From assembly GCF_964204645.1 (NCBI RefSeq), contig NC_134033.1, forward strand, positions 7,386,655 through 7,450,654: a stretch of 64,000 nt of DNA, given 5' to 3'. A program made the translations under genes and the position numbers. The number at the start of each line of letters is the position of its first letter. Positions within the stretch are counted from its first letter, which is position 1. Source of the stretch: Tubulanus polymorphus (taxonomy: Eukaryota > Animalia > Nemertea). Of this stretch, positions 1-42,765 are shown piece by piece. A model generated the notes under the pieces. It searched no databases, was not told where the DNA came from, and worked only from the letters and a program-made list of their open reading frames with translations.

Positions 1-936
1 TGGTTTAAATTAAAGCAATTTGGTTTAGATTTAATCAATCCAATATTCATATTAAAACCTAATGAATTGCATAATATATTTAATCCTGATATAGCAACTT
101 TTCCTTTTTGTGCAAAGGTTATCTTTTAATACTTAATAAATTTTTAGTACCATCTGCTGCGTAGAATCCAATGAAGAACCATTTTCTTAAATTATCTTTT
201 GCATTTAATACATAATCTGGAACTATCTTTTCTCTTGTTGAAGTATTACTTTTAACTATTGCATGAATATAGAATTCATCATTATATTTTATAGCAAAAT
301 CTTTAGGATTATTTACAAGTATTCTATAAACTGCTGATGATTTCATAACATCCATGATTCTAAATGTTTTATGTGAATAAACTTCTTCACAGAATTTCTT
401 AATTCTTTCTAATAATTTCAAGTCTTGATTGCATAAATACCAACAATATTTATTACCCCAAACATAATTATACACACCTGCTGAACCATCACCCATGAAA
501 AATCCTTTGATAAAATATTCTTTTTCTTCTAATGTTTCGGGTTCTATATTATAAATATTATCAATAATTTCATCAAATGACATATGATTCATTCTTTGGA
601 AAAATCTTTTATGTAATAATTCATCTCCAATTTTTATATCAGTTGGTTTTATTTCATCACCATTTCGTTTAATTAACTATGATCTTCTGTAACATCTACA
701 AACCCTAATTTAGTTCTAACTCTATAGATTTTCTTATTTGTTTTAACCCTAATAATATTCTTTAATTTTTTCCATCCATTTCTTGTCCAAACATCCATTA
801 ATCCATTTATTTGTATTAATTCTTTTTCACCATATGAAATATAACATTCATTTTGTTTTGGAATTATTTCTGAAATTCTTCTTATCAATATTTTATCATT
901 ACATTTTAATAATATTGGGGTGTCAGCTGTTACAGA
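1..936 (-). other. Intein with LAGLIDADG homing endonuclease (partial, frameshifted) in copy 1 PolB
   Basis: LYFD|SVTADTPILL at 936, block B VTEDHS, LAGLIDADG helices GFFMGDG and GFYAADG. Confidence 0.9.
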
Positions 937-3900
937 ATCAAAATATAATATTTCAATATGCTTTTCTCCAAAAAGTGGTTGTAAAACATTATAATAAAAA
1001 TCATACATTAATAATTTTGATACTTCTAAAACAGTTGAACCAATGAATATAGGTTTATTAAATTTCATTGACGTTCTTTTTAATTTAACTGCTGTTAAAT
1101 AATCTTCAAATCTTTTATTACCTAAATGTCTAGGGCTTGATTGTAGGTGTCTTAATCTTTCAGAATTATTTACTAATTCAATATCATTTCTATTTCTAAT
1201 ATTTTCACATGTTTTACCATAAAAACTATTATTCATTAATTTGAAGAAATCTTTTTCAAAATCTGTTTTTGATATGGTTCTCTGTTGAGTATTGAAATCT
1301 ATATATTTTTCTAACCACTTCGATTGATTAAATTCATAATATCTATGTAATTTCTTTAATTTCATTCCTTGTTTTAGATAAAATTTTAACATTCTATAAT
1401 GAACAATATAATTGTATTTATTATTTTGAGTAAGTATTATTTTTTCTGTAAAAACATGATCTTTCGGTTTTATTTTCTTCTGGTATTCACTTAAATAACT
1501 ATCATCTACAGTTAAATGTTCTGGGCAATAGGTAGGTTTCTTGTTTTAAACTTTATATTTTCAGGATATTCTAAATCAACTACAAAGAAATAACCAATTG
1601 GTGCTTCATCTTTTAAACTCGCAATTGCGCTTTCCCAATCAGTTTTATCATCATTTTCAACTTCTGTGAATATAAAATTTTTATATGGTTGAGGTTGCAT
1701 CATTGCCCAACCATATAAATTATTGGCGTCAATATATAATAATTTATATTCATCATTTGCTTTAAAATACCTATCTCCCATAACACCACTAATTCCACCT
1801 CTAATTGATTTTTCAAATAATAAAACCATATCTGGTTCTTTTAATAAATCTAATTCTACATTTGTATATTTTAAACCACATTGCCAGGTTAAACCAGGAC
1901 TAGAGTAGCAATAACAAGGATCAACATTAAAATGATTCAAATCAACTTCTCTAAATTTTTCAAATATGTCAGCCAATATCATAACATCTGATTTTAAATA
2001 TAAATCAACTAATTCACCATGATTTTTCATCTTAAAATGGTTCCAAATATTTAATGTTCTATTAAACACTTCGTCTTTCACATACTCGTCTTTTAATTGA
2101 TCATAAAATTGATCTTTTAATAATTCTGTTACATTAAAATCATTGTGTATTTTATAAAATGAATAAGGAATTGCGCCTTTATATCTCAATAATTTAAAAT
2201 CTTGGTCATTTGGATAATAATATCGAGTTATAACAAAATCATTATCAACTAAACTTTTTGATAAATTATCTAATGAACTTGCTAGAAATCCATAAGAATC
2301 TAAAAATCTAATGCAACCAAATTGAAATGAAATATAATTTTCAGATGTTTTAGCTAATAGTTTAAAATCATATTTTCTTACATTTACACCATTCATAGCA
2401 TTATATTCTTCTATTTCTTGATTAATTGAACCCAATTTCCTTGATAATTGTTTTATAAATAGATGGGTATCATAACCTGATAAATTATGAAATAATATTG
2501 GTACGAAACTAACTTTCTTAGCTTGTAAATTGCAATCTTCATGAGCAGCTCCACGATATTTTGAATTTAAATGATCATGATCTCTAACTTTTTTATCAAA
2601 TAAATAAAAACGTTTTTCACAATAACAACAATGAGTTGCATAATTAAAATCAATTTCATCTTCTTTTGTCATAACTATTCTTTTATTTTCGTTTAATAAT
2701 TTTGCAAAATCACTTTCTAATTCAAAATCCCCATAAATTACAAATGGAACAATATTTTTAAATTTATGATTAGTAAATTTCAATTTATAATCTTTTTCTG
2801 TTGGCATTATTAATTTGCAAAAATCTTTATTATCACATAATTCTTTATGTTTTAACAATGTATTCTCAGTCATAAATTTAGATAAACATTTTCTACATAG
2901 ATAAATTTTATTATGGTGATCACTTTCTGTTCTAAAGAATAAATCAATTTGTTTTAACCACATATAATGTTCATTTTCATCTTTTTTGTAATATAACAAA
3001 TCTATAGCATTTTCATCATCATAATATTCTGTTAAATATAAAGCTTCCAATGTATAATCTTTAATATTTTCACCTTTTGTCTTTGGTAATTGCATTAATT
3101 CAAATACATTTATTTTTAAATTATTAACTTTTTCTATTTTAGGAATCATTTTTATAGTTACTGGATATTGATCAATTTTATATAATGTTTCATATTTCCG
3201 GTAATTTGTTATTCTACAAACTTTTTCCTGTGTTGGATGTAAGCAACTAATAATTGACCATAGAAAACATTTATTATCTTCATTTTGAACATTTATTACT
3301 GCTTTTGTTGTAAATGGTAATTTAATATAAGATGATGCTTTAATATCCTTTTCTGTTGTAAAGTTTGAATCATTTTTAAACATTTTATTACTTTTTGATG
3401 TTTTATTCCTTTTTGTATTATAAACATTTAAATCTAAATATATAATTTCGTTCAATGTTAAGCCAGAACCCTCAAAATATCTTTCTTCAATATGACGTTT
3501 AAATTCATTAAATATTTTTTCTAACTTCTCTTTTATTTGTGTTTTTGAAATTATTTCTTCAGAGTGTGTTTGAATATTATAATTCATTTTTTCTTCTGAC
3601 TTTATAAAACTTACTTTCCCAGGGATACTAATTTTTGGATATTCAACATCTGTTATCAAATCTAGTATTTTTTCTATTATTTCATTAAATTTACTATAAT
3701 CTTCTATTGTTGTACCTTTAAGAAATCTAAATATAATAGCTGCAGGACCAATTTTACTACGTAATGTTTCTAATATTTCAATTGTATCTTTTATTTCTAG
3801 TGAATCAATATAATTTCTAACATTTTCCATGTAAGGTTTATTTGAAATGGATTTAGTTTTTGAAGTTGGTTTTTTTACTCTTTGAGGTTTATCATCAAAA

Positions 3901-4215
3901 TAATCTTTTCCTAAAACATTATTACTCAAATTTTGATGGTGTTTTTGTGATTCGAGATGTCTATTATAATTCCTTTTTACTATAAATTCATTACAAACTT
4001 ACACATTTTATTTCATCCACATTCATATTTTCTAATCTTTCTTTTCTTTCATTGGAATTTTCTGGAGTTTCAAAATCTATTACATTTTTTATATGATTTG
4101 CAGTTTTTTCATGTCGTGTTTTATTAGATGTATCGACGTATTTTTTACAATATTGGCAATAATATTGATTTTTATTAACATTATTATTTTCTGGCTGGTG
4201 TTCATTCTCTCCCAT
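1..4215 (-). pseudogene. polB: Protein-primed family B DNA polymerase (pPolB) with intein, frameshifted
   Basis: ORF pieces 3991-4215, 1512-3929, 673-1392 and 119-592 are collinear with copy 2 PolB. There are 1-nt frameshifts near 3995, 1530, 675 and 120, and an in-frame 264-nt deletion at ~2720. Motifs YIDANNLYG and KLMNNSFYGK are present. Confidence 0.92.
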
Positions 4216-7083
4216 TTATTAGGAAAAAAAATTACTTGTGGTGATGAGTGGTGTCTCGTCCTCTCGTCCTCTGATCTGAACCCCTGATATTCCAATTACT
4301 AGCAATGAAACAAAAATTCCAAAACGAAAAACCAAAATCCCTCATGCTAGTATCCCAAAAACGGGATGGATGAACATGGATGAACATGACATCGGAATTG
4401 AATATCCTTTAATCAATTGATTTCAGGCCATAATAAGGACCGCAATTGAAATCCATGGACTAACAGAAGAAAATTTTAAAACGAAAATTAAAGAAACAGT
4501 CGAAAGAGACAAAATTGAAAAATAAGCGTGATTACGAAAAGAGGTATAGAAATTCAAATCAAACTTTTTATTATCTCATGACAATGCAGTTAATTATTCT
4601 GATGTTCTTGTATATATAGAAAACAACGAAATTCACAAAAATCAAACGGAGATTACATAACACATGAAATTGAGCATGCGTTGGGGGTTATTGGAAGGTG
4701 TAAAGTTTTGAAGAAAAAAGGTATTGTAAAGAGTTTCAAACAATGTGATACTCATGATCATTAGAATTAATCAAGCCTTGATTCTTTGTCTTCAAACTGA
4801 TATTCTTGCGATATCAAATTGTTCGACGATAGATATTTGAAATTTAACCAACGTTTTCAGAGCAAACAACGCTAGTTATAATAACAACAAAAACGACATT
4901 CGGAGATAATTTGAAAATCTCTGCCGACTGGAAAGTAGGGAATCGACGATCCATACCAACAGGACTGATCAAGATCCAAGAATAAGGTATGAAATAGTAC
5001 CCTCACCTTGTTGAGTCAAGAAGATACACAATATCCGTGTAATATGGATGGCGACAAGAATCCCACAATGATTCAGTCACAGATGAAAAATTCTTGAATA
5101 GAAGAATACACATTTGAGCATAAGAGTTGAAGTTTCATCTTTCCCCCACCACTAAACTATGGCATTAGTTTTCATTTTTCCAAGTTTAACTATAAGATTT
5201 GATTTAATTTCTTCAATAATCTAATGCTCGGGACCAAATCTACAGAACAATATCGATATAAAATTGATAGATTTTGAGAATTAGTAATCTGAGTTTCTTC
5301 TTTCGAGTGTCATTGAAAACAATTAATATTCTCAGTGTTCCTATAGTAGGCCTAGTCACTGACAATATTTTGAGTGTTTTTGTTACACTCCATACGTGAA
5401 CGAGGTTGTCTTCAAATGATGTTGCTATGATTTCTTAATCTTAGTCGTATGAAAGATTTAATCAAGCTGCAGTGACGAAGCGTCCGTCACTTAGATTTCA
5501 TCTATTACATATTATAGCATAGGTTAGTCTAATAAATTCATAAAATTGTCTTTGAAATTGATTTGAAATTTCAGAAAGAAAACACAACATGGCTACTAAT
5601 TGAACGGAGTCAAATTTCCGATGTTTACGGCTCGACAGTGCCTTTATAACGTGGATCTATCAAAATTCCCATGCAGTATCTGGAGATTGAAGTGAGCTGA
5701 AGGATATCATACGGATTATATCGGCGACAGCGGTAAGGTAAGGAAGCCTTTACACTTTTAACAAAAACTGTGTGGAAAAGGGGAGAAAAAAAAATAAATA
5801 TAGCTGCGAAGCAGCGATAACGGGTTTTCTGAGCAGGCGTGCTATTCATAGTTTGAAAAGTGGATAATAGAAATATGTCAATACGGGATACGTATTTGAC
5901 GTGTCAAGTCACACCAATGCGGTTTAACATAACATAATTTATAGTTATAGTCAAATTGGGGGTTACTCGGGTCGTTTAGTTGTCTGCGGAGTCGAGTAGA
6001 TTGGTTACCCGTCTGTAACATTGGTTACGGAAACGACTCGTCAGCTTGATGAGTTGTATGTATTATGATTGTGCGCCACCTGCATTTTCCGAAATAATGT
6101 TCATATAATTATTTGAAGGGAGGATTGAAATCAATTATCAACGTACATCTGAATATGTAATAGTCCTTAGTAACTTTCTGTTGCAGAGGGCATAGAAAAG
6201 ATGTTGAAATTATTTAATTAAAATATAAATTTTATTTACGAAAAATAAATTATTATGGTCAGTACAAATTGAAAATTCATAGTGTATTTTTAAGAAGAAG
6301 CTTCCATAGCTTACAGAATACATCACGTACATTTGAATTTTATAAGTGATGGGTAAAAATCAACGTGTGACAGAAAAAAATTTAGTTAATTATTCAACAA
6401 TATCGAAATATGTGCTCTCTTATTAAACTAATGGAGTCATACGCAATTAATCACATGGCCTGTATTAAAAGATAGAACATACAAGTTGGATATTTATAAG
6501 TCGAAACATGTGAACAAAAACTAAAACTATGATGTCAGTATCGAATTACACAACGACAATTGGCTTTAAACTCAACAAACATTATTAAAGAATGTTTCAA
6601 ACAAAATGCTTTATATAACGACATGAATAAACTTGTTTTACAAAACAAGAAAGTACATTCTGAACTTTTGAATGGTCGAATCCCATTTATTCACAGTAAC
6701 CTGTGATGTGGCGATTCTTGGAGCCATCCTTCTTGATGACGTCACTAACAAGTGGTCACGGCCGTCGCGTGCACTCATTTCTTTGAAAATCTAGCTTCCT
6801 CGCGGAGCGGGACCTGGTGACGCTGCGCCCCGCCCCCTTCGCGCTGAGAAATATCTTATGTTCTAAAGATCATAGAGTGCATCGCTGGATGGTTTCCGCA
6901 TATATACATATGTATAATTGAATTTGAATTGGTGCGGTGGCGCTCGCAATGCGGAAGTTTTTGTGAATTTTTCAGTCGGCGACGGACGTTTATCGCTGTA
7001 AGTGATGTAATATGTAAAAAAATGCAGGGAAACCTATCTCAATTTGTTTTTAGCGATGCAGCGGAACTAATAAGGAACATTTT

Positions 7084-22759: not shown

Positions 22760-25700
22760 TTGTGCGGGAGCTTCGTGCTCAAAAATAAGATATCGACATA
22801 CAAGGCAGTATGTCTCCGTTACAGCATCATCAAAATCTACCCTGCTCAAAGGAACGGTCGTCAATCGACAATACCGACGAACTTGAGTCTGAGATGGAAA
22901 AACCAATTTCTACTGACTGACGTACTGAACTGAACTAGCCATGCAGCAGAGGCCACGACACCGGCAATTTGTTTGTTCACTTTAAAGATGACTGATTTAT
23001 AATGCTGAATGAATGTGACACTAGATATAAGCAGTCAATTCAGTGGTAGAAAATTATTAGCCTATATGACAGGTAACTTTACTTACTTCACTTCAACTTC
23101 AATGTCTTTTAAAACTTGTGAACAGTAAATGAATACTTATTTACAAATATTCTGTTGATTGTCTATTGTAGGTCATTGTGTGTGTTCTGGTGTTGATTTT
23201 CTGAGATACAACTCAGGTTTTCTTAAGAATTAGAAGTAATACGCATTAAATTGAATGAGCTCAACATGCACAGAATGAATTGTTGTCTCATGGTAAGTTT
23301 GAAAAACGGATGAAACATGAATTGAAAAGTCAATCCAGGTTTAATTGTTAGTATATGTATATCGGTTTAATTTCAGAAAGTAACCTCAATCACGAATCAA
23401 AAAGATTAACGAATCCAGCATTAATCATCATGAAATTAATAACAAGTGGTGAAACTCCTCGATTCTGATATAGTGATGAGGTTTAAAGAGCTGGAATTTA
23501 TTAATAACTACACGAGCAAGCATGCAATTGGAACTGGGATTGGATTTAGGCCTACTTTCTGTTAAAGACTTGGTCTTTGTGATTCGAGTTAAGTTAGAGA
23601 TATCAGTGTCATTCTGTTGTCACACAATTTGCCATGTTACTAAATACGTATGTCACCATCTTGTCAGGCAGTCTGTATATTGAATAAGATTTTGTACTAG
23701 AAAGTGGATAATAAATATAAATAAGAGTTTGTCGTGATGGATTTTATACTCAATTTCTAGCGAAAATCATGTATGGTCCATGAGGAGAGGAAAATAATGC
23801 AAATATCCAGTTGATCTGAATTACAGTCTAGCCCAACTTGCTGTCTGTATCATCAGGAATATATGTAGCGATGCCGCGTTGGATCCAAATATCTGTTATC
23901 AAAAAACTGACAGGGAGTTTAACTATTGTAAACTTTATTCAGACTTTAGTCATTTTCACATCATCAGAAACACAACAATTGAGTGAATATATTTTACATA
24001 TGGTTGACAAAGAAACCATGTCGCCCTTCAGCCAAGTTCCCTCAGAATGACTATCACAGCTGATCCCTTTTCCTTACCTACAAAATTAATAAGTATCAAT
24101 TCAGTAGTGGCTATATTTGAATTCCGAGTAATATCAGCAGTTTAATTCGATACTCACAGCAATTAATGCCTTTTATTCGGTCTTTAAATTTCCGTTTGTT
24201 TGCTGATTACATTTATGATTCATAGATTATCAGCTGCCTTACTGTAATCAATCATTCCAGTGCGATTTTGATATTACTCTTAGTTTCGCTTATTCGATGA
24301 GACGCCCGGAAGTAAATCGATACTGACATGTTTGACATGCATCGAAAATGTGGGATGGGATCAACCGGTCTCTAACTGAAGGTAGAGACCGGCAACCAGT
24401 CTACAATTGAATGGGACAGGCAACCAGTCTACACATGAGTCATTCTGCAGATTAGACTGGTCGCCTGTCCAATTCTGCGCCACCCGCATTCGCAGTCAGA
24501 ATAGGACTTAGAGAATAGGTTTAACCCGTCCGCCATCTTCCGCAGAATATACGGATCCAATCAGATTTCAGTATTTCATCACGTGAACAATGTAACATGG
24601 ACGCCTCCAGAGTGTCTCGATTTACGTTCCACGGACCTCTTATAAGTCGATTTTTACATCAATGGAAGAAAGAAACTCGACCAAAACTATCAGGTAACGC
24701 TTCTACGAGAACCTGTACTGCGTGTGGCCTCGAAGATATCGGCATACAAGGCAGTACGTCTCCGTTACAGTACCATCAAAATCTACCCTGCTCGAAGGAA
24801 CGGTCGTCAATCGACAACAATACCGACGAACTTGAGAAATGGAAAACCAATTTCTACTGACTGACTTACTAAACTGAACCAGCCATGCAGCAGAGGCCAC
24901 GACACCGGCAATTTGTTTGTTCACTTAAGATGACTGATTGATTATGCTGAATTTGACACTAGAGGTGAAAATATTAGCCTATACGACAGGTACCTTCACT
25001 TCACTTCAATGTGTTTTAAAACTTGTGAACAATAAATGAATACTTATTTACAAATATTCTGTTGATTGTCTATAGTAGGTCATTGTGTGTGTTCTGATGT
25101 TGATTTTCTGAGATACAACTCAGGTTTTCTTAAGAATTAGAAGTTATACGTATTAAATTGAATGAGCTCAACATGCACAGAATGAATTGTCGTTGTAGAT
25201 GGTAAGTTTGAAAAACGGATGAAACATGAATTGAAAAGTCAATCCAGGTTTAATTGTTAGTATATGTATATCGTTTTAATTTCAGAAAGTAACCTCAATC
25301 ACGAATCAAAGAGATTAACAAATCCCGCATTAATCATCATGAAATTAGATTCCAAATAACAAGTGGTGAAACTCCTAGATTCTGATACAGTGATGAAGTT
25401 TAAAGAGCTGGAATTTATCAATAACTCACGAGCGAGCATGCAATTGGAATTGAGATTGGATTTAGGCCTACTTTCTAGTCAAGACTTTGTCTTTGTGATT
25501 CGAGTTAAGTTAGAGATATCAGTGTCGTTCTGTTGTCACACAATTTGCTATGTCACAAAATACGTATGTCACCGTCTTGTCAGGCAGTCTGTATATTGAA
25601 TAAGATTTTGTACTAGAAAGTGGACAATAAATATAGAATTGCCAGTGAAAAAGAGTTTGTCGTGATGGATTTTATACTCAATTTCTAGCAAAAATCATGT

Positions 25701-25780
25701 ATAGTCCATGAGGAGAGGAAAATATTGCAAATATCCAGTTGATCTGAATTACTGGTCTATTCCAACTTGCTGTCTGTATC
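22760..25780 (+). repeat. Local tandem duplication (~1.5-kb unit); second unit continues at 42204-42637 after the Polinton insertion
   Basis: 22760-24282 aligns by eye with 24720-25780 plus 42204-42637. Confidence 0.85.
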
Positions 25781-25875
25781 AGTAATTGGAAGATGGCGTT
25801 TTCAGGCCAGAGGGCGTGAGGGCGAGACATCCCACTCATCACCACAAGTAATTTTTTTTCTTAATAAATGGGAGA
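25781..25875 (+). repeat. Left TIR (~95 bp, includes polB start codon)
   Basis: Reverse complement of 42109-42203 with few mismatches. Confidence 0.95.
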
Positions 25876-28800
25876 CAGTGAGTTCCAAACAGAAAACAAT
25901 AATGTCAATAAAAATCAATATTATTGCCAATATTGTAAAAAATACATCGATACATCTCATAAAACACGGCATGAAAAAACTGCAAATCATATAAAAAATG
26001 TAATAGATTTTGAAACTCCAGAAAATTCTAATGAAAGAAAAGAACGATTAGAAAATATGAATGTGGATGAAATAAAATGTGAAGTTTGTAATGAATTTAT
26101 AGTAAAAAGGAATTATAATAGACATCTCGAATCACAAAAACATTATAAAAATTTAAATAAAAATGTTTTAGGATTAGAATATTTTGATAATAAACCTCAA
26201 CAAGTAAAAGAATCAACTTCAAAAACAAAATCCATTTCAAATAAACCTTACATGGAAAATGTTAGAAATTATATTGATTCACTAGAAATAAAAGATACAA
26301 TTGAAATTTTAGAAACATTACATAGTAAAATTGGTCCTGCAGCTATTATATTTAGATTCTTTAAAGGTACAACAATAGAAGATTATAGTAAATTTAATGA
26401 AATAATAGAAAAAATACTAGATTTGATAACAGATGTTGAATATCCAAAAATTAGTATCTCTGGGAAAGTAAGTTTTATAAAGTCAGAAGAAAAAATGGAT
26501 TATAATATTCAAACACACTCTGAAGAAATAATTTCAAAAACACAAATAAAAGAGAAGTTAGAAAAAATATTTAATGAATTTAAACGTCATATTGAAGAAA
26601 GATATTTTGAGGGTTCTGGCTTAACATTGAATGAAATTATATATTTAGATTTAAATGTTTATAATACAAAAAGAAATAAAACATCAAAAAGTAATAAAAT
26701 GTTTAAAAATGATTCAAACTTTATAACAGAAAAAGATATGAAAGCATCAAGTTATATCAAATTACCATTTATAACAAAAGCAGTAATAAATATTCAAAAT
26801 GAAGATAATAAATGTTTTCTATGGTCAATTATTAGTTGCTTACATCCAACAGAAGAACATGTTGATAGAATAACAGATTACCGGAAATATGAAACATTAT
26901 ATAAAATTGATCAATATCCAGTAACTATAAAAATGATTCCTAAAATAGAAAAAGTTAATAATTTAAAAATAAATGTATTCGAATTAATGCAATTACCAAA
27001 GACAAAAGGTGAAAATATTAAAGATTATACATTGGAAGCTTTATATTTAACTGAATATTATGATGATGAAAATGCTATAGATTTGTTATATTACAAAAAA
27101 GATGAAAATGAACATTATATGTGGTTAAAACAAATTGATTTATTCTTTAGAACAGAAAGTGATTTTAACAGCCATAAAATTTATCTATGTAGAAAATGTT
27201 TATCTAAATTTAGAACTGAGAATACATTATTAAAACATAAAGAATTATGTGATAATAAAGATTTTTGTAAATTAATAATGCCAACAGAAAAAGATTATAA
27301 ATTGAAATTTACTAATCATAAATTTAAAAATATTGTTCCATTTGTAATTTATGGGGATTTTGAATCATTGAATAAAGAATTAACTGATCAAGATAGAAAA
27401 GAAATATATAACAAAAAGCAATTATTAAAATCAATGGATAAAGGAAGTGAATTAAATGAAGACATAATACAAGACCCACCAATTATAAATACAATTAAAA
27501 AAGTTCATCAAAGAGCTGCTGCTTATGGAATTTATATAAAATCAAATTATCCCGAATTATATGAAAGTCAATATATTTCCTTTAGAGGTGAAAATGTAGT
27601 TAATGATTTTTGTGATAAAATGATGGAATTAGAAAGTGATTTTGCAAAATTATTAAACAAAAATAAAAGAATAGTTATGACAAAAGAAGATGAAATTGAT
27701 TTTAATTATGCAACTCATTGTTGTTACTGTGAAAAACGTTTTTATTCATTTGATAAAAAAGTTAGAGATCATAATCATTTGAATGGAAAGTTTAGAGGCG
27801 CTGCACATGAGAATTGTAATTTGCAAGCAAAGAAAATCAATTTTGTCCCCATTATATTTCACAATTTATCGGGGTATGATACCCATCTATTTATAAAACA
27901 ATTATCGGGAAAATTGGGTGCAATTAATCAAGAAATAGAAGAATATAATGCTATGAATGAAGCAAATGTAAGAAAATATGATTTTAAACTATTAGCTAAA
28001 ACATCTGAAAATTATATTTCATTTCAATTTGGTTGCATTAGATTTATAGATTCATATAGATTTTTAAATAGTTCATTAGATAATTTATCAAAAAGTTTAG
28101 TTGATAATGATTTTATTATAACTCGATATTATTATCCAAATGACCAAGATTTTAAATTATTGAGATATAAAGGCGCAATTCCTTATTCATTTTATAAAAC
28201 ACACGATGATTTCAAAGAAACGAAATTATTAAAAGATCAATTTTATGATAAATTAAAAGAGGAGTATGTGAAAGACGAAGTTTTTAATAGAACATTAAAT
28301 ATTTGGAACCATTTTAAGATGAAAAATCATGGTGAATTAGTTGATTTATATTTAAAATCAGATGTTATGATATTGGCTGACATATTTGAAAAATTTAGAG
28401 AAGTTAATTTGAATCATTTTAATGTTGATCCTTGTTATTGCTACTCTAGTCCTGGTTTAACCTGGCAATGTGGTTTAAAATATACAAATGTAGAATTAGA
28501 TTTATTAAAAGAACCAGATATGGTTTTATTATTTGAAAAATCAATTAGAGGTGGAATTAGTGGTGTTATGGGAGATAGGTATTTTAAAGCAAATGATGAA
28601 TATAAATTATTATATATTGATGCCAATAATTAATATGGTTGGGCAATGATGCAACCTCAACCATATAAAAATTTTATATTAACAGAAGTTGAAAATGGTG
28701 ATAAAACTGATTGGGAAAGCGCAATTATGAGTTTAGAAGATGAAGCACCAATTGGTTATTTCTTTGTAGTTGATTTAGAATATCCTGAAAATATAAAGTT

Positions 28801-30934
28801 TAAAACAAGAAACTTACCTTATTGCCCAGAACATTTAACTGTAGATGATAGTTATTTAAGTGAATACCAGAAGAAAATAAAACCGAAAGATCATGTTTTT
28901 ACAGAAAAATTAATACTTACTCAAAATAATAAATACAATTATATTGTTCATTATAGAATGTTAAAATTTTATCTAAAACAAGGAATGAAATTAAAGAAAG
29001 TACATAGATATATTGAATTTAATCAATCGAAGTGGTTAGAAAAATATATAGATTTCAATACTCAACAGAGAACCATATCAAAAACAGATTTTGAAAAAGA
29101 TTTCTTCAAATTAATGAACAATAGTTTTTATGGTAAAACATGTGAAAATATTAGAAATAGAAATGATATTGAATTAGTAAATAATTCTGAAAGATTAAGA
29201 CATTTACAATCAAGCCCCAGACATTTACAAAATAAAAGATTTGAAGATTATTTAACAGCAGTAAAATTAAAAAGAACATCTATGAAATTTAATAAACCAA
29301 TATTTATAGGTTCAACTGTTTTAGAAGTTTCAAAGCTATTGATGTATGATTTTTATTACAATGTATTACAACCATTGTTTGGGGAAAAACATATAGAAAT
29401 TCTATACTTCGATTCTGTAACAGCTGACACCCCAATATTATTAAAATACAATAACCAAATATTAATTAGAAGAATTTCAGAAATAATTCCTAATCAAAAT
29501 AAATCTTATATTTCGTATGGTGAAAAAGAACTAATACAAATAAATGGATTAATGGATGTTTGGACAAGAAATGGATGGAAAAAATTATATAATATTATTA
29601 GACATAAAACAAATAAGAAAATCTATAGAGTTAGAACTAAATTAGGATTTGTAGATGTTACAGAAGATCATAGTTTAATTAAACGAAATGGTGATGAAAT
29701 AAAACCAACTGATATAAAAATTGGAGATGAATTATTACACAACAGATTTTACCCAAGAATGAATCATATGTCATTTGATGAAATAATTGATAATATTTAT
29801 AATATAGAACCCGAAACATTAGAAGAAAAAGAATATTTTATCAAAGGATTTTTCATGGGTGATGGTTCAGCAGGTGTGTATAATTATGTTAGTGGAACTA
29901 AATATTGTTGGTATTTATGCAATCAAGACTTAAAATTATTAGAAAGAATTAAGAAATTCTGTGAAGAAGTTTATTCAAATAAAACATTCAAAATCATAGA
30001 TGTTATGAAATCATCGCAATGTTATAGAATACATGTGAATAATCCTAAAGATTTTGCTACAAAATATAATGATGAATTCTATATTCATACAATAGTGAAA
30101 AGTAATACTTCAACAAAAGAAAAGATAGTTCCAGATTATGTATTGAATGCAAAAAATAATTTAAGAAAATGGTTCTTCATTGGATTCTATGCAGCAGATG
30201 GTACTAAAAGTTTCAAAAACCGCAAAACAATATCTTTAGCTCAAAAAGGAAAAGTTGCTATATCAGGATTAAATATATTATGCAATTCATTAGGTTTTAA
30301 TATGAATATTGGATTGATTAAATCTAAACCAAATTGCTTTAATTTAAGCCATGTAGAAAAAGATTTAACTGAAGAAGTTAAAGATTTATTTGAAATATAT
30401 AACCCAACTGACTATGTTTATGATTTATCAACAGATGATGGAACATTCAATTCTGGGTTCCCATTAATCCAAAAAAATACTGACGCCTACATATTAAAAA
30501 TCAAGACAAATGATATAACAAAAGACTTAAAAACATTGAAACATTATTTCGACTTTAGCAATTACCCTAAAGATCATGAATTGTTTAGTAATGATAATAA
30601 AAAGATTCCTGGTAAGTTTAAAGATGAATTAGGAGGTGATGAAATGATTGAATTTGTTGGGATAAGAAGTAAAATGTATAGTTATAGAACAAAAGATCAT
30701 GAAGCTAAAAAGTTAAAAGGAATAACAAAACATGTGGTTGATAAACATATAGAATTTCAAGATTATATAAAGTGTTTATATAAATCAATTGTAATGAAAC
30801 ACAAAATGAATTGTTTAAGATCAGAAGATCATGAGATGTACATTAATGAAGTTGAAAAAACTAGTTTAAATCCATTTGATGATAAAAGGCATATTTTAGA
30901 TGATGGTATAAAAACATTACCTTATGGCCATTAA
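25868..30934 (+). pseudogene. polB: pPolB (zinc fingers, OTU-like protease, exonuclease with EndoVII/HNH-like insert, polymerase, intein) with one premature stop
   Basis: Single frame with TAA at 28631-28633, where copy 1 has TTA in YIDANNLYG. OTU-like NEDNKCFLWS...HY, ExoI GDFE, EndoVII-like CCYC...RDHNH...AHENCN, motif B KLMNNSFYGK, motif C LYFD/TDA split by the intein. Confidence 0.95.
29414..30478 (+). other. 355-aa intein with LAGLIDADG homing endonuclease
   Basis: Starts SVTADTPILL after YFD, block B VTEDHSL, GFFMGDG and GFYAADG, block F YVYDLST, ends IQKN followed by Thr+1 (TDA). Confidence 0.95.
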
Positions 30935-32232
30935 AACATAAAATCAATATCATCATACTCGAAATCACTATTGGCTTCTTCATTTTCATTTAATTGTTCA
31001 GGTTCTTCTTCCATTCCATTTTTCTCATTTAAATAAAGTTCTATCTTGTTCCACATTTCATCTCGCTCTCTTTGTTTCTTTTTGTTTGTTAATTCATCAA
31101 ATGGAATTATAATATCTAGGTTTAAATAATTTACAATCTTATTTAAAAAGAATTCATAATTTATTGAATCTGTTATTCTATTTTCCAAATGATACATTAA
31201 TATTTGTTTAAATATTTTTTTTATATTTTCCATATCTTCTTCTGTTAATTTAGGTTTTTCATAATAATCGTTAAATAATAAATATAAATACATTTTCTTT
31301 TCTTTTGTGTTAAATGTTGGTGGAATAATTGTTTTTATAATATCTTTTTTAGTTATTTCACCATTTTTATTTTCTATTATTTTCATTTTTTCAAGCCATT
31401 GTATATATTCTGGTGTATGATCTTCTATAGAAAATATTTTAAAAATTTCATCAAGATAATTTAATTTTGGATCTATAAGAAAATTTCTAGTTTTTTCTTC
31501 ATCCCATAAATTCTTTTGCCATCCACAATCAACACAAAATAACACAGTACCTTCTTGTCTTAAGGTCGCATAACTACATTGTGGACATTTTCGTTTATAA
31601 TTTATTGGTAATAGATCTTCATTAAGCTCTTGGTATTTTCTTACGTTTTCTTTATGTTTTATTGTTCTATTATGTAGATTTGAATTACTTGTTGTAATAA
31701 TCAATTTACAATATTTACAATAATATGTTTTTCTTGTTAATTCATTATATTGTTTTTCTAACTTTTCAACTGTTTCTTCATTATCTGGTAACGTTTTCTC
31801 ATATTTTATTTTTTCTAATAAATTATTTTTTCTTTCATTGAATTCAGTTTCAAATTTATTAGAAATTTTATCTATATGTACTTTACGAAATTGATGATTC
31901 TCCCAATCTTCTATATTTTCAGGGCTATATTTTACTAGACAAGGCTCGCAGAAATGATCTTTTATATTATCCTTATCATAGAATAAGAAAGGTCTTTTCC
32001 AAATAACTTCAGGTTCAACTTCAGCAGAATTACTATCAACATTAGCCATTGCGCCATTAATTCTACACTTCTCTGAATGTTTTTTAACATAATTTCTTGA
32101 GAATAATTGATTACATTTTGGGCAGTTTATTTTAGGGGGTTTATAATTTTCATCATGTTTTTTCATATGTCGAGCCTTATTACTTTTTCTTAGAAGTTCA
32201 CCACAAATTTCACATGCTATCTTCTCTTCCAT
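30931..32232 (-). CDS. Multi-zinc-finger protein with C-terminal VLTF3-like (poxvirus/NCLDV late transcription factor 3) domain
   Basis: N-terminal CxxC...H fingers, zinc ribbon CPQC...CVDCG, C-terminal PKLTEE..IF..I...INYEFFLNKI...D.MWNKI resembling the remembered VLTF3 consensus. Confidence 0.6.
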   Translation of the reverse strand: MEEKIACEICGELLRKSNKARHMKKHDENYKPPKINCPKCNQLFSRNYVKKHSEKCRINGAMANVDSNSAEVEPEVIWKRPFLFYDKDNIKDHFCEPCLVKYSPENIEDWENHQFRKVHIDKISNKFETEFNERKNNLLEKIKYEKTLPDNEETVEKLEKQYNELTRKTYYCKYCKLIITTSNSNLHNRTIKHKENVRKYQELNEDLLPINYKRKCPQCSYATLRQEGTVLFCVDCGWQKNLWDEEKTRNFLIDPKLNYLDEIFKIFSIEDHTPEYIQWLEKMKIIENKNGEITKKDIIKTIIPPTFNTKEKKMYLYLLFNDYYEKPKLTEEDMENIKKIFKQILMYHLENRITDSINYEFFLNKIVNYLNLDIIIPFDELTNKKKQRERDEMWNKIELYLNEKNGMEEEPEQLNENEEANSDFEYDDIDFMF

Positions 32233-32300
32233 TTATTTAAGAAAAATTTTATTAAAATTAATTTTTAGTGATGAGCGGTAATTTCTTTATGTTATAAATA

Positions 32301-33059
32301 ATGGTAGAATTAAAAGAATACAGAATATTTATAGATTCTAGAAGGCTTACAAATTATAAATCACATAATTTACTAGTACAATTAGATAGAGAATTTAAGA
32401 ATTGTGTAGATTTAAAATTAGTTAATATAAGTTTATGTAATTCTTTTTACAATATATCGAATAAAACTATTGAACATAATACTTTTTTAATTCATATTAG
32501 AAGTATAAATAAATGGTTTAATCTATTTCTAAGACCAGGATTATATAATTTAGAAACATTATCTCAAGAAATTAATCGTAGAGCACGATTAAAACTAAAA
32601 AGTGAAGATAAATTTTTAATAAGAGTTATAAAAAGTGATAGTTCTGGTAAAATTAAAATAAAGTTAGATGATGAAAACAAACATGCATTTATGGTAAAAA
32701 AACCTATAGCTAAATTGCTAGGAATTGCACCAGATATTGTTACAGGAAACGTAGAAGGTATTTCAAATATAATACCTTTTACACACTTTTATATTTATTG
32801 CAATTTAATCGATCCTACAAAAACATTCGAAGCAACTTAAGATATAACTTGTAATTCTGGTTTACTAAACATTTTACCATTGAAGAATGTTAAAGAATTT
32901 GGAACGCAAATAAATTATAATTTAACAGAATGTGATTTCAAACCATGCATTCCTCGTTTTAATAATTTTAGATTAGAAATTAGAAATCATAATGGATACT
33001 TAATTGATTTAAATAATTTCCCTGTAATTTATGAATTAGTTATAAGATGTAAAGAGTAA
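32301..33059 (+). pseudogene. Minor capsid protein (penton, single jelly-roll) with in-frame stop at 32838-32840
   Basis: Motifs PGLYN..L..EIN, LLGI, IYCNLID. The frame continues after the TAA to ...LEIRNHNGYLIDLNNFPVIYELVI, typical of Polinton pentons. Confidence 0.7.
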
Positions 33060-33075
33060 TTTTTTTGATATATAA

Positions 33076-33417
33076 ATGAATATAACTGTTGGACCGAGTA
33101 TATGTTTTGGATTTGATTTTAAACATGCTAAAGAAATGAGAATTAAACTAAATGATGTAATTACTGATATAAAAAGTAAATCATTTAACAATGCATCAAT
33201 GATTGATAAAGAAAATTATAATATAGAAAAAGTAATTGATTTAATTAAATCACCTTTAGAATATTATGAATTAAATGAAGATGGAATTATTGATGATATC
33301 AAAAACATATTATCCAAAATATATGATAATCATAAAACTAGTAATGAAATAAATGTTGAATTAATCATAAATAAGTTAACTAAATATTTTGAAGATAGTA
33401 ATTTTTTTGATAAATAA
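33076..33417 (+). CDS. Polinton hypothetical protein (113 aa)
   Basis: ORF with the element-wide ATAAATG start context. Confidence 0.65.
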   Translation: MNITVGPSICFGFDFKHAKEMRIKLNDVITDIKSKSFNNASMIDKENYNIEKVIDLIKSPLEYYELNEDGIIDDIKNILSKIYDNHKTSNEINVELIINKLTKYFEDSNFFDK

Positions 33418-33639
33418 ATGAGTGATAATAAGTGGATAATAACTGGATTATATAATGGCGCATTACTATCAGTTGGAACTGTTGGTTATTCAATGGTATT
33501 AAAAAAAGTATTCAAAATGGGAAGTGTTAATGTTGATAGATTTGATATAAATGATATTTTAAAGTTAACATTAGCAGTTACTTTATCTAATTTAACTATT
33601 GATTATTTGGAAAAACAAAAATATATTCCTCCCATATAA
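33418..33639 (+). CDS. Small hydrophobic/membrane protein (73 aa)
   Basis: ATAAATG start, two hydrophobic segments. Confidence 0.65.
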   Translation: MSDNKWIITGLYNGALLSVGTVGYSMVLKKVFKMGSVNVDRFDINDILKLTLAVTLSNLTIDYLEKQKYIPPI

Positions 33640-33663
33640 ATGCGTAATTTTTTTGTTAAATAA

Positions 33664-34086
33664 ATGGCTTCTGCAATTATAACTATTATAGGATCGGCAA
33701 TTGTTAACGCTTTAGCATTTACTGGTGGTGGTTATTTATTTAAACATATTGATAAAAATAGTTCATTAGGAGAACAAAGAAGACATAATTTAGCGTTAGA
33801 GAAATATAATAAAGCTGCAGAAGAATATAGAGAAAAGAGACAAAACTATATGGATTACATCAATAAAGAATTATATGATCAGAAGATTTCACATAGAGAT
33901 TTTCAATCAGTTGACGATGCAATGAGTTTATATAACGCAGTAACAAATAAAGAAAAATTACATCTATACAAACCTAAATTATCAGATTATTATACCCCGA
34001 GTAAAGAACAACAGAAATATGAAATAATTTAGATTTTAGGTGGAACTGTTATTGTTATATTTGTTGCTTATAAGTTTACTAATTAG
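33664..34086 (+). CDS. Membrane-associated Polinton protein, probable premature TAG at 34030-34032
   Basis: N-terminal hydrophobic helix and coiled coil. The frame continues after the stop into a TM segment ILGGTVIVIFVAY. Confidence 0.6.
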
Positions 34087-34105
34087 TAATTTTTATTCTA
34101 AATAA

Positions 34106-34540
34106 ATGGAAGATAAAGTTGATAGTATTGATATTATTCCTCATGATATAAATAAAACTAAATTAAAAATATATTTAGAAAAACAAATATTAGAATTTGA
34201 AAGTGACTTAAAGATAAAAAAGAAAAAATATTTAAAAAGTAAAATTATATATTATTTGATTATAAGTGGTTCGGTTACAATTAGTTCTGTAATAACATTT
34301 CTAGCAATATTCAGTCCATTAACACCTTTAGCTATATCAATTGGTGTGTTAGGATTAAGTTCAAGTGTTTTAACTGGTATAAGTTCAAAATTAAATATCA
34401 AAAGTAATAAAGAAAAAATAAAATCTAATATAAAAGAAATTAATAAATTAAAGAACACACTAGATTATATAATAAGTTTAAATGGTCATATAACAGTTGA
34501 AGAACAAGATAAATTATTAAAAGAATTAATAAATTATTAA
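34106..34540 (+). CDS. Two-TM membrane protein (144 aa)
   Basis: Two adjacent hydrophobic helices flanked by coiled coils, ATAAATG start. Confidence 0.7.
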   Translation: MEDKVDSIDIIPHDINKTKLKIYLEKQILEFESDLKIKKKKYLKSKIIYYLIISGSVTISSVITFLAIFSPLTPLAISIGVLGLSSSVLTGISSKLNIKSNKEKIKSNIKEINKLKNTLDYIISLNGHITVEEQDKLLKELINY

Positions 34541-34556
34541 TTTTTTAATTATATAA

Positions 34557-35939
34557 ATGGTAGATAGTTTTCCAAAAGCTTTCCAATATAATAAATCAAT
34601 TAAATATAATATTCCAGCAATAGATTTTAATAAAGATATTACATATAGAAATGAAGTTTTAGATTCATTAACTAATTTAGAAATTTATGTTACTGAAACT
34701 AATAATTTTAATGCAAAGATGGAAAATATATTTCATGTATATTTGATTAATTTTAAAAAATTGAAAGATGAAAAACAATGGTTATTAAAATCTAATATGA
34801 AGTATTGGCAGAACCAATTAAATTTTGCTGTTTATTGTGCAACAACAGGATGTGGAATTAGTTGGAATGATCATTTGAATAATTCTAAATATAAACTAAT
34901 TCAAAGTTTATTTAGATTTCATACATACTTTCAAATCAGAATAATATTAAATGAATTAGAGTGTGCTTTACCAGGATCTAGGTATTTTAAAGAATTAGAT
35001 AATAATATTAATTTATCTAAGTTTTATAACATTTGCAATGAATTTAATATAGATATAAATAATTCTGATTTTAGAATAAAAATTGGAACAATAAGATCAC
35101 TTCCTTGCCCTAAAAAGATTGCAGAATGTTGTGCACTTCCCATACCATCTAATAGTTTTTATAATATCTATAATAAAAAATTAGGTAATGGTAAAATAGA
35201 AACAAAGGATTTAGAAACATTAAATTTCAATAAATTACCGAAATTTTATGATAATTTAAAACAAGAAAACAATAATGGTTGGGTTTATTTTATTTTAGAA
35301 AATAGTGAAGGTTTTACAAAATCAGGTATAGAAAGAATAAATCAATCTATTAGAACTTATTTGATATGTATTTTAGGCGCCCAAGTTGAAACAAGATCAC
35401 CGATAATTGGAAATGATAACACTTCATTCGATACACAAAAACAATTTAAAGTTTTATTTGAAGATTCAATTCATAATGATAAAAATAGATCGATTCCAGA
35501 AAACATTATAAGATATCAAAATTATTTAGATAAATCTCATGTAAGACTTTATTATTGTATAGGCCCTAATCTATTAATTATTTCTAATGATTTAGTATTA
35601 AAGATGGGAAACATAATTGGTTATAATAATCTAATTAAAACTGCAACAATAAATAATTCATTTGGATTGAATGATATAAATAAAAAGATTATTACTGCCC
35701 CAAAATTAATGGAAGGTGAAAAAAATAAAAAACATATTCAATCAACAGAAACTAAAACTAAGAATATTAAATTGGTTAATGATTCTAAAATAAAAGATTA
35801 CAATACATCAGAAAATAATAGAACTGATAAAATTCAACATGATATAATTAAACAAAATGATGATAATAAATCCCATGAAAATACTAAATTAGCTATAACT
35901 TGTATAGGAATTGTAATCGGAGGAATATTATATTTTTAA
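34557..35939 (+). CDS. Conserved Polinton hypothetical protein (460 aa) with C-terminal TM anchor
   Basis: Long ORF, WQNQLNFAVYCATTGCG motif, hydrophobic C-terminus. Confidence 0.75.
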   Translation: MVDSFPKAFQYNKSIKYNIPAIDFNKDITYRNEVLDSLTNLEIYVTETNNFNAKMENIFHVYLINFKKLKDEKQWLLKSNMKYWQNQLNFAVYCATTGCGISWNDHLNNSKYKLIQSLFRFHTYFQIRIILNELECALPGSRYFKELDNNINLSKFYNICNEFNIDINNSDFRIKIGTIRSLPCPKKIAECCALPIPSNSFYNIYNKKLGNGKIETKDLETLNFNKLPKFYDNLKQENNNGWVYFILENSEGFTKSGIERINQSIRTYLICILGAQVETRSPIIGNDNTSFDTQKQFKVLFEDSIHNDKNRSIPENIIRYQNYLDKSHVRLYYCIGPNLLIISNDLVLKMGNIIGYNNLIKTATINNSFGLNDINKKIITAPKLMEGEKNKKHIQSTETKTKNIKLVNDSKIKDYNTSENNRTDKIQHDIIKQNDDNKSHENTKLAITCIGIVIGGILYF

Positions 35940-35961
35940 TTTTAATTTTTTTATTATATAA

Positions 35962-37388: not shown

Positions 37389-37408
37389 TTAATTTTTTTG
37401 TTAAATAA

Positions 37409-38656: not shown

Positions 38657-38686
38657 AAATATAAAGTTAAAATTAAGGATATATAA

Positions 38687-39814
38687 ATGAGTGGTAAAAA
38701 AACTCCTAATACTAAAGAACAATATTTAAGAAATTTATATTACAACCCTGAGAGTTCGGTTGCTTATTCTTCTACTAAAAATATATGGCGTAAAGTAAAA
38801 CAAGATAAATTAGATAAGATAATCCCACAAAATTTAGTTAAATACAAAGATATAAATGAATTTATGTTAGAACAACCAACATATACAACACATAAAAAAA
38901 TTGTTAGAAAATATAAAACTCGTAAAACTATGGTAAGTTATGTAGATCAACAGTGGCAAGGAGATTTAATTGATATGAAAAATCTTAAAAAAGATAATAA
39001 TGATTATTGGTGGATATTGAATATAATTGATATTTTTAGTCGTTATGTATGGAGCTTCCCACTTTATAGAAAAGATGCTGCACAAACATCACATGTTTTA
39101 AGAAAATTTCTTTCAGGTGGTAAACTAAAACCAGAAAAAATTCAATTTGATGATGGAAAAGAATTTGATAATTCATTAGTTCATGGACTTTTAGATTTTC
39201 ATAATATTAAATATTTTTCAACAAAATCGGATAAAAAAGCAGCAGTTGTTGAACGATTTAATAGAACATTGAGAACAAGAATATCAAAATATTTCACAGC
39301 AAATAATACTTATAAATGGATTGATGTTTTACCAAAATTTATAGAAGGATATAATAATTCTTATCATTCTTCTATTGGAATGAAATCTATTGATGCTAGA
39401 AAACCTGAAAATGCTGAAATTGTTTGGAATAATTTATATGGAGCATTTCTTGTAGATGATTTTGGTGAACCTAAATTTAAAGTTGGTCAAAATGTTAGAA
39501 TTTCTAAGTATAAAAAGATATTTGACAAAGGATACGATCGAAATTTTACTAGAGAAATATATAAAATAAAAAAGGTAATAACAACAAAACCATATGTCTA
39601 TAAATTAGAAGATTTAGATGGTGAAGAAGTTGATGGATATTTTTATGAAGAAGAATTAAGTTTAACTACTGAAAATCTAGAACAAGAATATAAAATTGAA
39701 AAAGTACTAAAAACAAAAACTGTTAAAAGAAAAAAATATTCTTTAGTAAAATGGGTTGGATGGCCAGATAAATTTAATGAATGGATATTATCAAGTAAAA
39801 TTAAAAATATATAA
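38687..39814 (+). CDS. Retroviral-like (rve) integrase with C-terminal chromodomain
   Basis: DDE triad WQGDLID / FDDGKEF / VERFNRT, chromodomain YKIEKVL...LVKWVGWP..FNEW. Confidence 0.93.
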   Translation: MSGKKTPNTKEQYLRNLYYNPESSVAYSSTKNIWRKVKQDKLDKIIPQNLVKYKDINEFMLEQPTYTTHKKIVRKYKTRKTMVSYVDQQWQGDLIDMKNLKKDNNDYWWILNIIDIFSRYVWSFPLYRKDAAQTSHVLRKFLSGGKLKPEKIQFDDGKEFDNSLVHGLLDFHNIKYFSTKSDKKAAVVERFNRTLRTRISKYFTANNTYKWIDVLPKFIEGYNNSYHSSIGMKSIDARKPENAEIVWNNLYGAFLVDDFGEPKFKVGQNVRISKYKKIFDKGYDRNFTREIYKIKKVITTKPYVYKLEDLDGEEVDGYFYEEELSLTTENLEQEYKIEKVLKTKTVKRKKYSLVKWVGWPDKFNEWILSSKIKNI

Positions 39815-40423
39815 ATGAATAAGGAATTATTCATATTTGAGCCTCATAATATGTTAATTTCTGGTGTAACAAATTGTGGAAAAACTTATTTTATATTACA
39901 TTTATTAGAAACTGTTTATGAAAACTATTTTGATAATATAGTATTATTTTTTCCAACATATGAATTTAATCAAACTTATGATAGAAATATTACTAGAAAT
40001 AATAAATTTATTATATTAGATCCTAAAACAGTAAAAGAAAATTTAGATAATTGTATAAAAATAGCAATTGATATTTATAAAGGATCAAATACATTATTCA
40101 TTATAGATGATTGTGCTAATCTACATGATTCAAAAGTTAGAGAAAGTGAGTTATGTTATTTAGCTTTTTCTGGTAGACATTTTGGGATAACAACATGGGT
40201 TTTAAATCAAAAATATAATTCAATTGTTAAAGACTTTAGAGAAAACATTAGATTTCTAGTTTTATTCTACAATAAAGATAGAAAATCAATGAAAAATGCA
40301 CTTGAGGAAAATGATATTATTCCACATGATTTACATAATGAATATATGGATAAGTTGAAAAATATTAAAAGATCAAAATTACTATTTAGATTACAACACC
40401 CATTTAAATATGAATTTATTTAA
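39815..40423 (+). CDS. A32/FtsK-like DNA packaging ATPase
   Basis: Walker A GVTNCGKT, Walker B FIIDD, GRH and Q motifs. Confidence 0.92.
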   Translation: MNKELFIFEPHNMLISGVTNCGKTYFILHLLETVYENYFDNIVLFFPTYEFNQTYDRNITRNNKFIILDPKTVKENLDNCIKIAIDIYKGSNTLFIIDDCANLHDSKVRESELCYLAFSGRHFGITTWVLNQKYNSIVKDFRENIRFLVLFYNKDRKSMKNALEENDIIPHDLHNEYMDKLKNIKRSKLLFRLQHPFKYEFI

Positions 40424-40680: not shown

Positions 40681-40707
40681 CACACAATTAATTTTTTTGT
40701 TATATAA

Positions 40708-41623: not shown

Positions 41624-41790
41624 AAAAAAAGCAAAAAAAAATAATTTTTTTTTAATTAATTGAATATTAATTGAATATTAATTGAATATCTCACTACTTT
41701 TGTCTATCTATGAGGAGCAATTAAATTGTCCAGATAAGTCATTTCGGATTCTAGATATTCATTATTTTTATTAATTTATTTTTTTTAAAC

Positions 41791-42116
41791 TTAATCAACA
41801 ATTTCTAAATCATGATGACCGTCTTCATTTTTTCCATGATAGATTATTTTAAATCCTTCTAAATCTTTTAATTCCTCTGTACTCAATGAAACCCATTTAT
41901 CAGGTAAAAATACTTTAAATTCTCGCGATGTACTAACATTACAGTAACTTAAATTAGCTGATACTTTCTCTCCATATTTAGTTTTTATCTTTTCTAATTT
42001 CAATATTTTATGTTCAATTTCTTTTGTAACATCAACTAACTTTTTTATTTCAAATTGTTTTTTGCTGGTTTTATTCTGTTATTTATTGTTGCTAAGAATG
42101 CTTTTCTATCTCCCAT
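41791..42116 (-). pseudogene. Small terminal gene starting inside the right TIR, frameshifted in an A-run near 42060
   Basis: MGDRKAFLATINNRIKPAK joins after one frameshift to QFEIKKL...KTKYGEKV...VFLPDKW (ORF 41791-42003). Confidence 0.6.
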
Positions 42117-42203
42117 TTATTAGGGAAAAAAATTACTTGTGGTGATGAGTGGGGTGTTTCGCCCTCACGCCCTCTGGCCTGAAAACGCCATCTTCCAATT
42201 ACT
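42109..42203 (-). repeat. Right TIR
   Basis: Inverted copy of 25781-25875. Confidence 0.95.
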
Positions 42204-42765
42204 TGTATCATCAGGAATATATGTAGAGATGCCGCGTTGGATCCAAATATTTGATATCAAAAAACTGACAAGGAGTTTAACTATTGTAAACTTTATTCAG
42301 ACTTAAATCATTTTCCCATCATCAGAAACACAACAATTGAGTGAATATATTTTGCATATGGTTGACAAAGAAACTATGTCGCCCTTCAGCCAAGTTCCCT
42401 CAGAATCACTATCACAGCTGATCCTTTTCCTTACCTACAAAATTAATAAGTATCAATTCAGTAGTGGCTATTTGAATTCCGAGTAATATCAGCGGATTAA
42501 TTCGATACTAACAGCAATTAATGTCTTTTCTTCGGTCTTTAAATTTCCGTTTGTTTGCTGATTACATTTATGATTCATAGATTATCAGCTGATTTACTGT
42601 AATCGATCATTCCAGTGCGATTTTGATATTACTCTTAAGGCGTTTTTATGAGCATGCGTACTCGATTCCGAGTACGTATTTCGATTACCTGCCGGGTAAG
42701 ACCGAGTACATACCCGGGTAGCCAGTTCCCATAAACGCACCTGAGTATGCACCCAGTGTTTCAAA

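Follow-up and report, generated by a model that had tools for sequence, protein, structure and literature searches.

The window analysed here, a stretch of 64,000 nucleotides, contains a complete element of 16,423 bp (25781-42203) that breaks up a host repeat, an uninterrupted copy of which is found at about 23836-23865. As shown in Table 1, the element is bounded by terminal inverted repeats and a target-site duplication and carries a family B polymerase gene that is itself interrupted by an intein. Polinton/Maverick elements are typically 15-25 kb in length, with terminal inverted repeats and a 6-bp target duplication as hallmarks, and on these sequence features, together with its protein-primed polymerase, rve integrase and A32 ATPase, the element is assigned to the Polintons. 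The PF03175 profile had no match in the window polymerase itself, whereas its relatives P0003 and P0004 do match. For the capsid candidate, no Pfam match was found; its ESM Atlas feature score to viral clusters was 0.97-0.98, a score whose recognition value is low, and some of these clusters have Capsid_N or DJR families on 10-24% of their members. An adenovirus-type maturation protease was not found among the seven larger ORFs of the element that were scanned.

Table 1. Features of the element and its polymerase, with positions in the window (the slash marks the insertion point)
Feature	Position	Strand	Basis
Intein, 355 aa, with LAGLIDADG homing endonuclease, in polymerase motif C (LYFD/TDA)	29414..30478	+	
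N-terminal splicing (Hint) region, Ser1 and block B Thr83/His86	29414..29758, end approximate	+	TIGR01445 residues 2-88; model beta-strands
Two-domain LAGLIDADG endonuclease, helices 136-150 and 248-262, Asp150/Asp262	29819..30352, ends approximate	+	profile, model, I-DmoI and PI-SceI structure matches
C-terminal splicing region: block F Asp337, terminal Lys354-Asn355, then Thr+1	30374..30478	+	
Family B polymerase gene, 1688 codons, intein included	25868..30934	+	relatives with PF03175
In-frame stop in motif A, upstream of the intein	28631..28633	+	
Left terminal inverted repeat, 95 bp, with 4 mismatches against its right counterpart; holds the polymerase start codon	25781..25875	+	
Right terminal inverted repeat	42109..42203	-	
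Target-site duplication TGTATC, 6 bp, left copy	25775..25780	+	
Target-site duplication TGTATC, 6 bp, right copy	42204..42209	+	
Probable double jelly-roll major capsid protein, 415 aa	37409..38656	+	ESM Atlas lead
Retroviral-like integrase with chromodomain	38687..39814	+	rve E=1.1e-8, Chromo E=2.3e-4
A32-type packaging ATPase	39815..40423	+	Pox_A32 E=1.7e-12
Polymerase end of a second copy of the element, with the same intein; truncated at the window start	1..4300	-	

Each terminal repeat has an inward-facing start codon; the left one starts the polymerase, and the right one opens a stop-broken frame at about 41700-42116 on the minus strand. Within the polymerase, a weak endonuclease VII (HNH-like) match lies at 27689-27826 (residues 608-653, E=0.009) and is common in relatives; because of this match, which comes in addition to the intein, the window polymerase may carry two nuclease inserts. 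A third and more distant polymerase start (73% DNA identity), truncated where the window ends, is found at 62537-64000 on the plus strand and is preceded by a 268-bp self-complementary stretch (62226-62493, 87%). At this palindrome ends an inverted repeat of about 8-9 kb (8015-17041 versus 53870-62226), which is largely non-coding, 93-98% identical and internally duplicated. The remaining window holds a young Gypsy-type LTR retrotransposon whose gag and pol are intact and whose 561-bp LTRs are 99.8% identical (45141-53121, minus strand), a Harbinger-like transposase (DDE_Tnp_4) with an upstream ORF that adjoins the right end of the element (42766-44145, plus strand), and two unannotated ORFs of 341 and 249 aa, the first of which ends in a 12-residue repeat (17205-19035, minus strand).

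The insert in motif C is open over all of its 355 residues, from SVTADTP at its start to PLIQKN at its end, and its flanks, LYFD and TDAY, are in frame with the polymerase gene. Since the three closest polymerases, which are 70-73% identical over N-extein residues 923-1182, read YFD-TDS with no insert, the boundaries of the intein are fixed. Under the established names of the splicing blocks, V82-H86 contains the TEDH of block B; GFFMGDG is found from residue 145, GFYAADG from 257 and VYDL from 335. The class 1 residue set is complete (Ser1, Thr83, His86, Asp337, Asn355 and Thr+1), and both LAGLIDADG helices end in an acidic residue (Asp150 and Asp262). The Pfam profile LAGLIDADG_3 (PF14528) matched the intein with E=3.8e-7 (30.7 bits, above the cut-off of 22.5) and TIGR01445 (intein_Nterm) with 31.4 bits (above the cut-off of 24.5), while Pfam Intein_splicing stayed below its cut-off of 35.8 (E=2.8e-6, 27.6 bits). 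An AlphaFold2 model built from a nine-row alignment had a pLDDT of 85.6, and its top structural match by Foldseek was the TliVMA homing intein (E=3.8e-17, TM 0.69); by phmmer, the intein matched PI-PkoII at 1.8e-7. The translation and the profiles bear out what the sequence-only reading had seen here, an open 355-aa insertion with Ser1, TEDH, two LAGLIDADG helices, a Lys-Asn end and Thr+1, and the search for Hint and LAGLIDADG profiles that it proposed gave matches above the cut-offs.

The penultimate residue is Lys354 in place of the usual His, the latter being described in a passage of PMC5874633 as an assisting residue in inteins. Among 122 members of the intein family, 54 end in Lys-Asn and 52 in His-Asn; judged from these sequences, the Lys-Asn ending is a family variant, and its interpretation as a sign of decay was rejected. 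A Hedgehog-type Hint domain was ruled out by the endonuclease and the Asn/Thr junction, and a chance ORF or an assembly artefact by the second copy, the reads and the relatives. Taken together, these sequence comparisons confirm a Hint and LAGLIDADG intein within a Polinton polymerase.

Two features of the locus go beyond the sequence-only reading, namely the in-frame stop in motif A and the second copy of the intein. Since the stop lies upstream of the intein, the window copy would make no full precursor. At the stop, 724 of 731 reads from the whole-genome run X6 (same species label, 12% read, 85% likeness) differ from the window, and the stop is private to the window copy or an assembly error. 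The polymerase and intein of the second copy are 94-95% identical to those of the first; this copy has several frameshifts and its own terminal repeat. Both window copies are thus broken, one by a stop and the other by frameshifts. In run X6, read depth is 150-260 over the intein and 270-600 over the polymerase flanks, with reads of diverged and mixed identity and depths uncalibrated for copy number; the intein-bearing polymerase is a multi-copy family in the species. Third codon positions hold 12 of 18 intein read variants (counted by hand, among 40 of 555 variant rows). Two contigs of run X1 depart from the window sequence exactly at 29413, and the letters that follow resemble, by eye, the start of the C-extein; these two contigs weakly suggest an empty allele in the same species.

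The named polymerase relatives are from Oculina (a coral) and Actinostola (an anemone), with one further label of Sulfurimonas, and for the Gypsy element nearby the cellular relatives that carry a name come from fish, amphibians and molluscs, alongside several bacterial-symbiont MAG labels. Judged by these relatives, the host of the Polinton is probably an animal. If the host were not an animal, or the window were a contaminant, the intein would add one case to those in endogenous viruses of protists or algae; the window yielded no identified host gene, and the published intein-bearing viral-like polymerases on nuclear scaffolds, in the passages of PMC10710043 that concern them, come from algae and a labyrinthulomycete. 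We consider this very improbable given the animal relatives of both the Gypsy element and the polymerase, bacterial labels notwithstanding, and given that the element interrupts a host repeat with target duplication. The sequence-only reading had set its finding against inteins in animal nuclear genes, a framing that does not hold, as the intein sits in an endogenous virus and not in a host gene.

We searched proteins with the intein and considered the best 120 of 306 matches, in proteins of 623-2000 residues. Ten of the 120 listed are protein-primed polymerases with an intein at the same site (P0003-7, 9, 11, 13, 43 and 90), at 41-63% identity to the window intein. Proteins of the P0004 cluster sit on contigs of up to 1 Mb, as would be expected of integrated copies. 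The RNA-primed type, marked by PF00136, accounts for 107 of the 120, with identities of up to 42% apart from short local matches; one of these is the Pol delta of Chloropicon primus (P0120). The other three are type II topoisomerases. Among 139 further representatives, 114 were RNA-primed by an extein test, one was window-type (P0305, 76%) and 24 were unassigned. Scans of viral and metagenome sequences (37 loci and at least 80 of 481 loci) gave two giant-virus MAG contigs, L001 and L002, as the best viral loci (42% to the intein). All 87 complete inteins in the 117 viral and metagenome loci occupy the YGD/TDS site, and none of these 117 intein loci has a protein-primed polymerase. These sequence matches support the assignment of the window intein to a family at YGD/TDS of RNA-primed, giant-virus-type polymerases. 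The family members in the topoisomerases (P0008, P0085 and P0113) lie at a D/xDG site that resembles the D/TD of the polymerases, which is a sign of non-allelic spread. Several RNA-primed-type polymerases carry two related inteins, one in motif B (N/SMYG) and one in motif C (P0302, P0303, P0308, P0310, P0314, P0319, P0324, P0334 and P0376).

Quick SH-aLRT trees were built from full-length inteins; 15 of 121 proteins that had no complete intein by pattern were left out, including the truncated P0043 and P0090, as was the frameshifted second window copy. The inteins of protein-primed polymerases form one clade in three trees (SH-aLRT 100, 99 and 99), and, with the tree rooted on five motif-B inteins, this clade nests in a starred group (97) of inteins from RNA-primed polymerases. 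The grouping with giant-virus-type polymerase inteins predicted by the sequence-only reading was therefore recovered. The sister of the Polinton clade varies, being either a giant-virus group that shares a C-terminal GFPL or P0014 (94). The window intein is 45% identical to that of P0017, a protein near-identical to the giant-virus MAG locus L001, while the exteins are 20-25% identical; for P0006, a different type of protein-primed polymerase, the values are 49% for the intein and 20-28% for the extein. Since intein identity far exceeds extein identity in both cases, at least two lateral moves are indicated, one between RNA-primed and protein-primed polymerases and one between types of protein-primed polymerase. 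Within the window-type polymerases, inteins and exteins show similar degrees of identity and their trees are largely congruent, which suggests that the first of these moves is old and that much of the pattern comes from descent with repeated loss.

One old transfer from giant viruses into Polintons is favoured by these sequence comparisons but not proven. The sequence-only reading had proposed such a transfer between the two polymerase families; the membership in the YGD/TDS family (107 of the 120 listed, with PF00136) upholds the relationship, while its direction is less firm. When the Polinton inteins are constrained to lie outside all 28 of the RNA-primed inteins, the tree loses 24 log-likelihood units but is not rejected (p-AU 0.065). 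Such a tree would fit a passage from Polintons to giant viruses, and the presence of the same intein family in the Chloropicon Pol delta (P0120; in a passage of PMC10710043) would fit an indirect route through a protist or algal nuclear polymerase, or through a protist Polinton-like virus, with no meeting in an animal cell. We judge a reverse or indirect route to be improbable: the intein family shows much greater diversity among RNA-primed polymerases (107 of 120 listed and 114 of 139 by the extein test), the best rooted tree nests the Polinton clade, and P0120 is distant from that clade. As an event of this particular element the transfer was rejected, because the nearest relatives are other protein-primed polymerases (up to 63%, in one clade) and the giant-virus ones reach only 42%. 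Homing across the two families, as the sequence-only reading had worded it, was not supported in that form either: the DNA around the window site matches giant-virus-type sites at a mean of 12 of 24 bases, and simple cross-family homing is for this reason not obvious.

Among Polintons, the intein is present in only 3 of the 120 best extein relatives (0 of the 117 others). We placed 12 occupied polymerases, which were chosen, and 47 empty ones, 43 of them top new matches, on an extein tree of 59 rows; intein presence changes 9 times on it, at least 7 of these being forced by starred branches, and these changes do not separate gain from loss. Two clusters at 90% contain both occupied and empty polymerases. 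In one comparison, the occupied P0140 and the empty P0143 are identical over 150 residues on each side of the site. In another, P0004 and three empty sisters disagree, on either side of the site, at 4 of the 10 nearest residues; farther out, 0-1 of the next 140 residues upstream and 8-9 of the next 140 downstream differ. The P0004 pattern is as expected if donor DNA had been co-converted with the intein, and mutational escape of the empty sites would resemble it. Four empty relatives of the P0004 group (P0131, P0129, P0168 and P0166) read DCDS instead of DTDS in motif C and may be variants that evade the endonuclease.

Between the two window copies, dN/dS was 0.31 for the intein (307 codons), 0.32 for the endonuclease (193 codons) and 0.22 for the N-extein, by simple counts on one pair with 23.5 synonymous and 33.5 non-synonymous differences in the intein. 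The patchy presence, the coexisting alleles and the endonuclease dN/dS fit homing among Polintons, as far as sequences can tell. The intein could instead be an old passenger that entered a Polinton ancestor once, was then inherited and repeatedly lost, and still splices but no longer homes. The similar identities of inteins and exteins in the window-type polymerases (53/46/45% to P0004 and 64/60/59% to P0003) and the broad agreement of the two trees would follow from such a history; P0140 and P0143 show no foreign flank, so that precise loss fits them as well as homing does; and some reads are frameshifted in the endonuclease part (12 of 142 at 30205). However, an endonuclease dN/dS of 0.32, with both catalytic aspartates kept across the Polinton intein clade, speaks against a nuclease that no longer homes, P0006 needs a lateral jump, the flank differences of P0004 resemble a donor tract, and the intein is confined to 3 of the 120 best extein relatives. 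On this evidence we think a passenger that no longer homes unlikely.

From the anatomy and site of the intein, the integrated element, the single clade, the patchiness, the alleles and the purifying selection, we infer with fair confidence that this is a homing intein in the catalytic motif of a Polinton protein-primed polymerase, predicted to splice, likely to home into intein-free copies and likely derived from one old transfer of giant-virus type. In the splicing reaction, Ser1 would form an ester, the N-extein would pass to Thr+1 as a branch, and Asn355 would cyclise, with the DTD catalytic motif restored; this route through Ser1, Thr+1 and Asn355 is established intein chemistry. Since the insert separates the residues of the DTD motif across the junction, splicing would have to happen, and with the motif split an intein-bearing element could not be expected to replicate without it. 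The endonuclease would cut empty alleles, and repair from an occupied copy would spread the intein when two Polinton genomes share a nucleus, in agreement with homing theory, in which an empty allele is cut and the occupied copy serves as repair template (in a passage of PMC10710043). The many Polinton copies per genome would offer the endonuclease a standing supply of targets. The first entry would probably have taken place in a cell with both virus types, through a tolerant endonuclease or microhomology at the conserved D/TD codons. A bolder proposal, which we put forward tentatively and hold to be less probable than its opposite, is that an intein lineage which Polintons took up from giant viruses continues to home among them in animal germlines, jumps between types of polymerase with only 20-28% identity, and bears witness that animal Polintons formerly replicated in one cell together with giant DNA viruses, as virophages do.

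These results bear on where inteins occur. Inteins are absent from multicellular organisms according to a passage of a review (PMC5874633), and eukaryotic inteins are mainly from unicellular hosts according to part of a 2023 survey (PMC10710043); a multi-copy intein under purifying selection in animal chromosomes, even one inside an endogenous virus, would change this distribution map. Homing requires that two genomes meet in a single cell; the intein would therefore also mark contacts of Polintons with one another and with giant viruses, and so bears on the viral life of Polintons. With occupied and empty alleles present in near-identical copies, homing can be tested directly on DNA. No complete intein in a Polinton polymerase was described in the literature that was searched, with supplements, subscription papers, InBase and Repbase outside its scope; as far as these searches show, this is the first complete intein in a protein-primed polymerase. 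In Green et al. (2018, PMC5784728), a word search turned up nothing on animals.

Compared with known systems, the window intein would represent a known intein family in a new kind of host, an intein carried in animal chromosomes within a Polinton. Inteins in animal viruses have a precedent, one being known from an insect iridovirus (in a passage of Ogata et al. 2005, PMC549080). The Mimivirus PolB intein, in the part of the same paper that describes it, is alike in length (351 versus 355 aa), Ser1, the block-B Thr/His pair, LAGLIDADG, the terminal Asn and Thr+1, and in a family B polymerase site shared with archaeal inteins; the two are likened by description only, and they differ in host, which in the window is a protein-primed polymerase encoded by an integrating element of 16 kb. 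The sequence-only reading had put the window intein close to that of Mimivirus; no named Mimivirus sequence appeared among the matches listed, and the closest relatives found outside Polintons are in polymerases of uncultured giant-virus MAGs (L001 and L002, 42%). TliVMA (7qsu), PI-PkoII (2cw7), PI-PfuI and PI-SceI share the Hint horseshoe and the two-domain LAGLIDADG fold (Foldseek E 3.8e-17 to 1e-10), but they are only 12-18% identical to the window intein and come from other host proteins and organisms. The inteins on nuclear scaffolds of Klebsormidium, Tetrabaena and Honda (in passages of Gallot-Lavallee et al. 2023, PMC10710043) likewise lie inside endogenous virus polymerases, and the Chloropicon Pol delta (P0120) has the same intein family at the same site as the window. 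The hosts in the passages seen of that survey are algae and protists, unlike the window, and the words 'Polinton', 'animal' and 'metazoa' are absent from its main text by word search, supplements aside. Nuclease domains inside Polinton protein-primed polymerases were also described by Jeong et al. (2023, PMC10748475), in whose main text 'Hint' and 'LAGLIDADG' have no occurrence by word search, and a passage of Krupovic et al. (2024, PMC11071308) suggested that such nuclease inserts stem from intein invasions. The window intein gives substance to this published guess: the inserts in the passages of Jeong et al. are HNH or VSR domains, whereas the window polymerase carries a complete intein in its catalytic motif.
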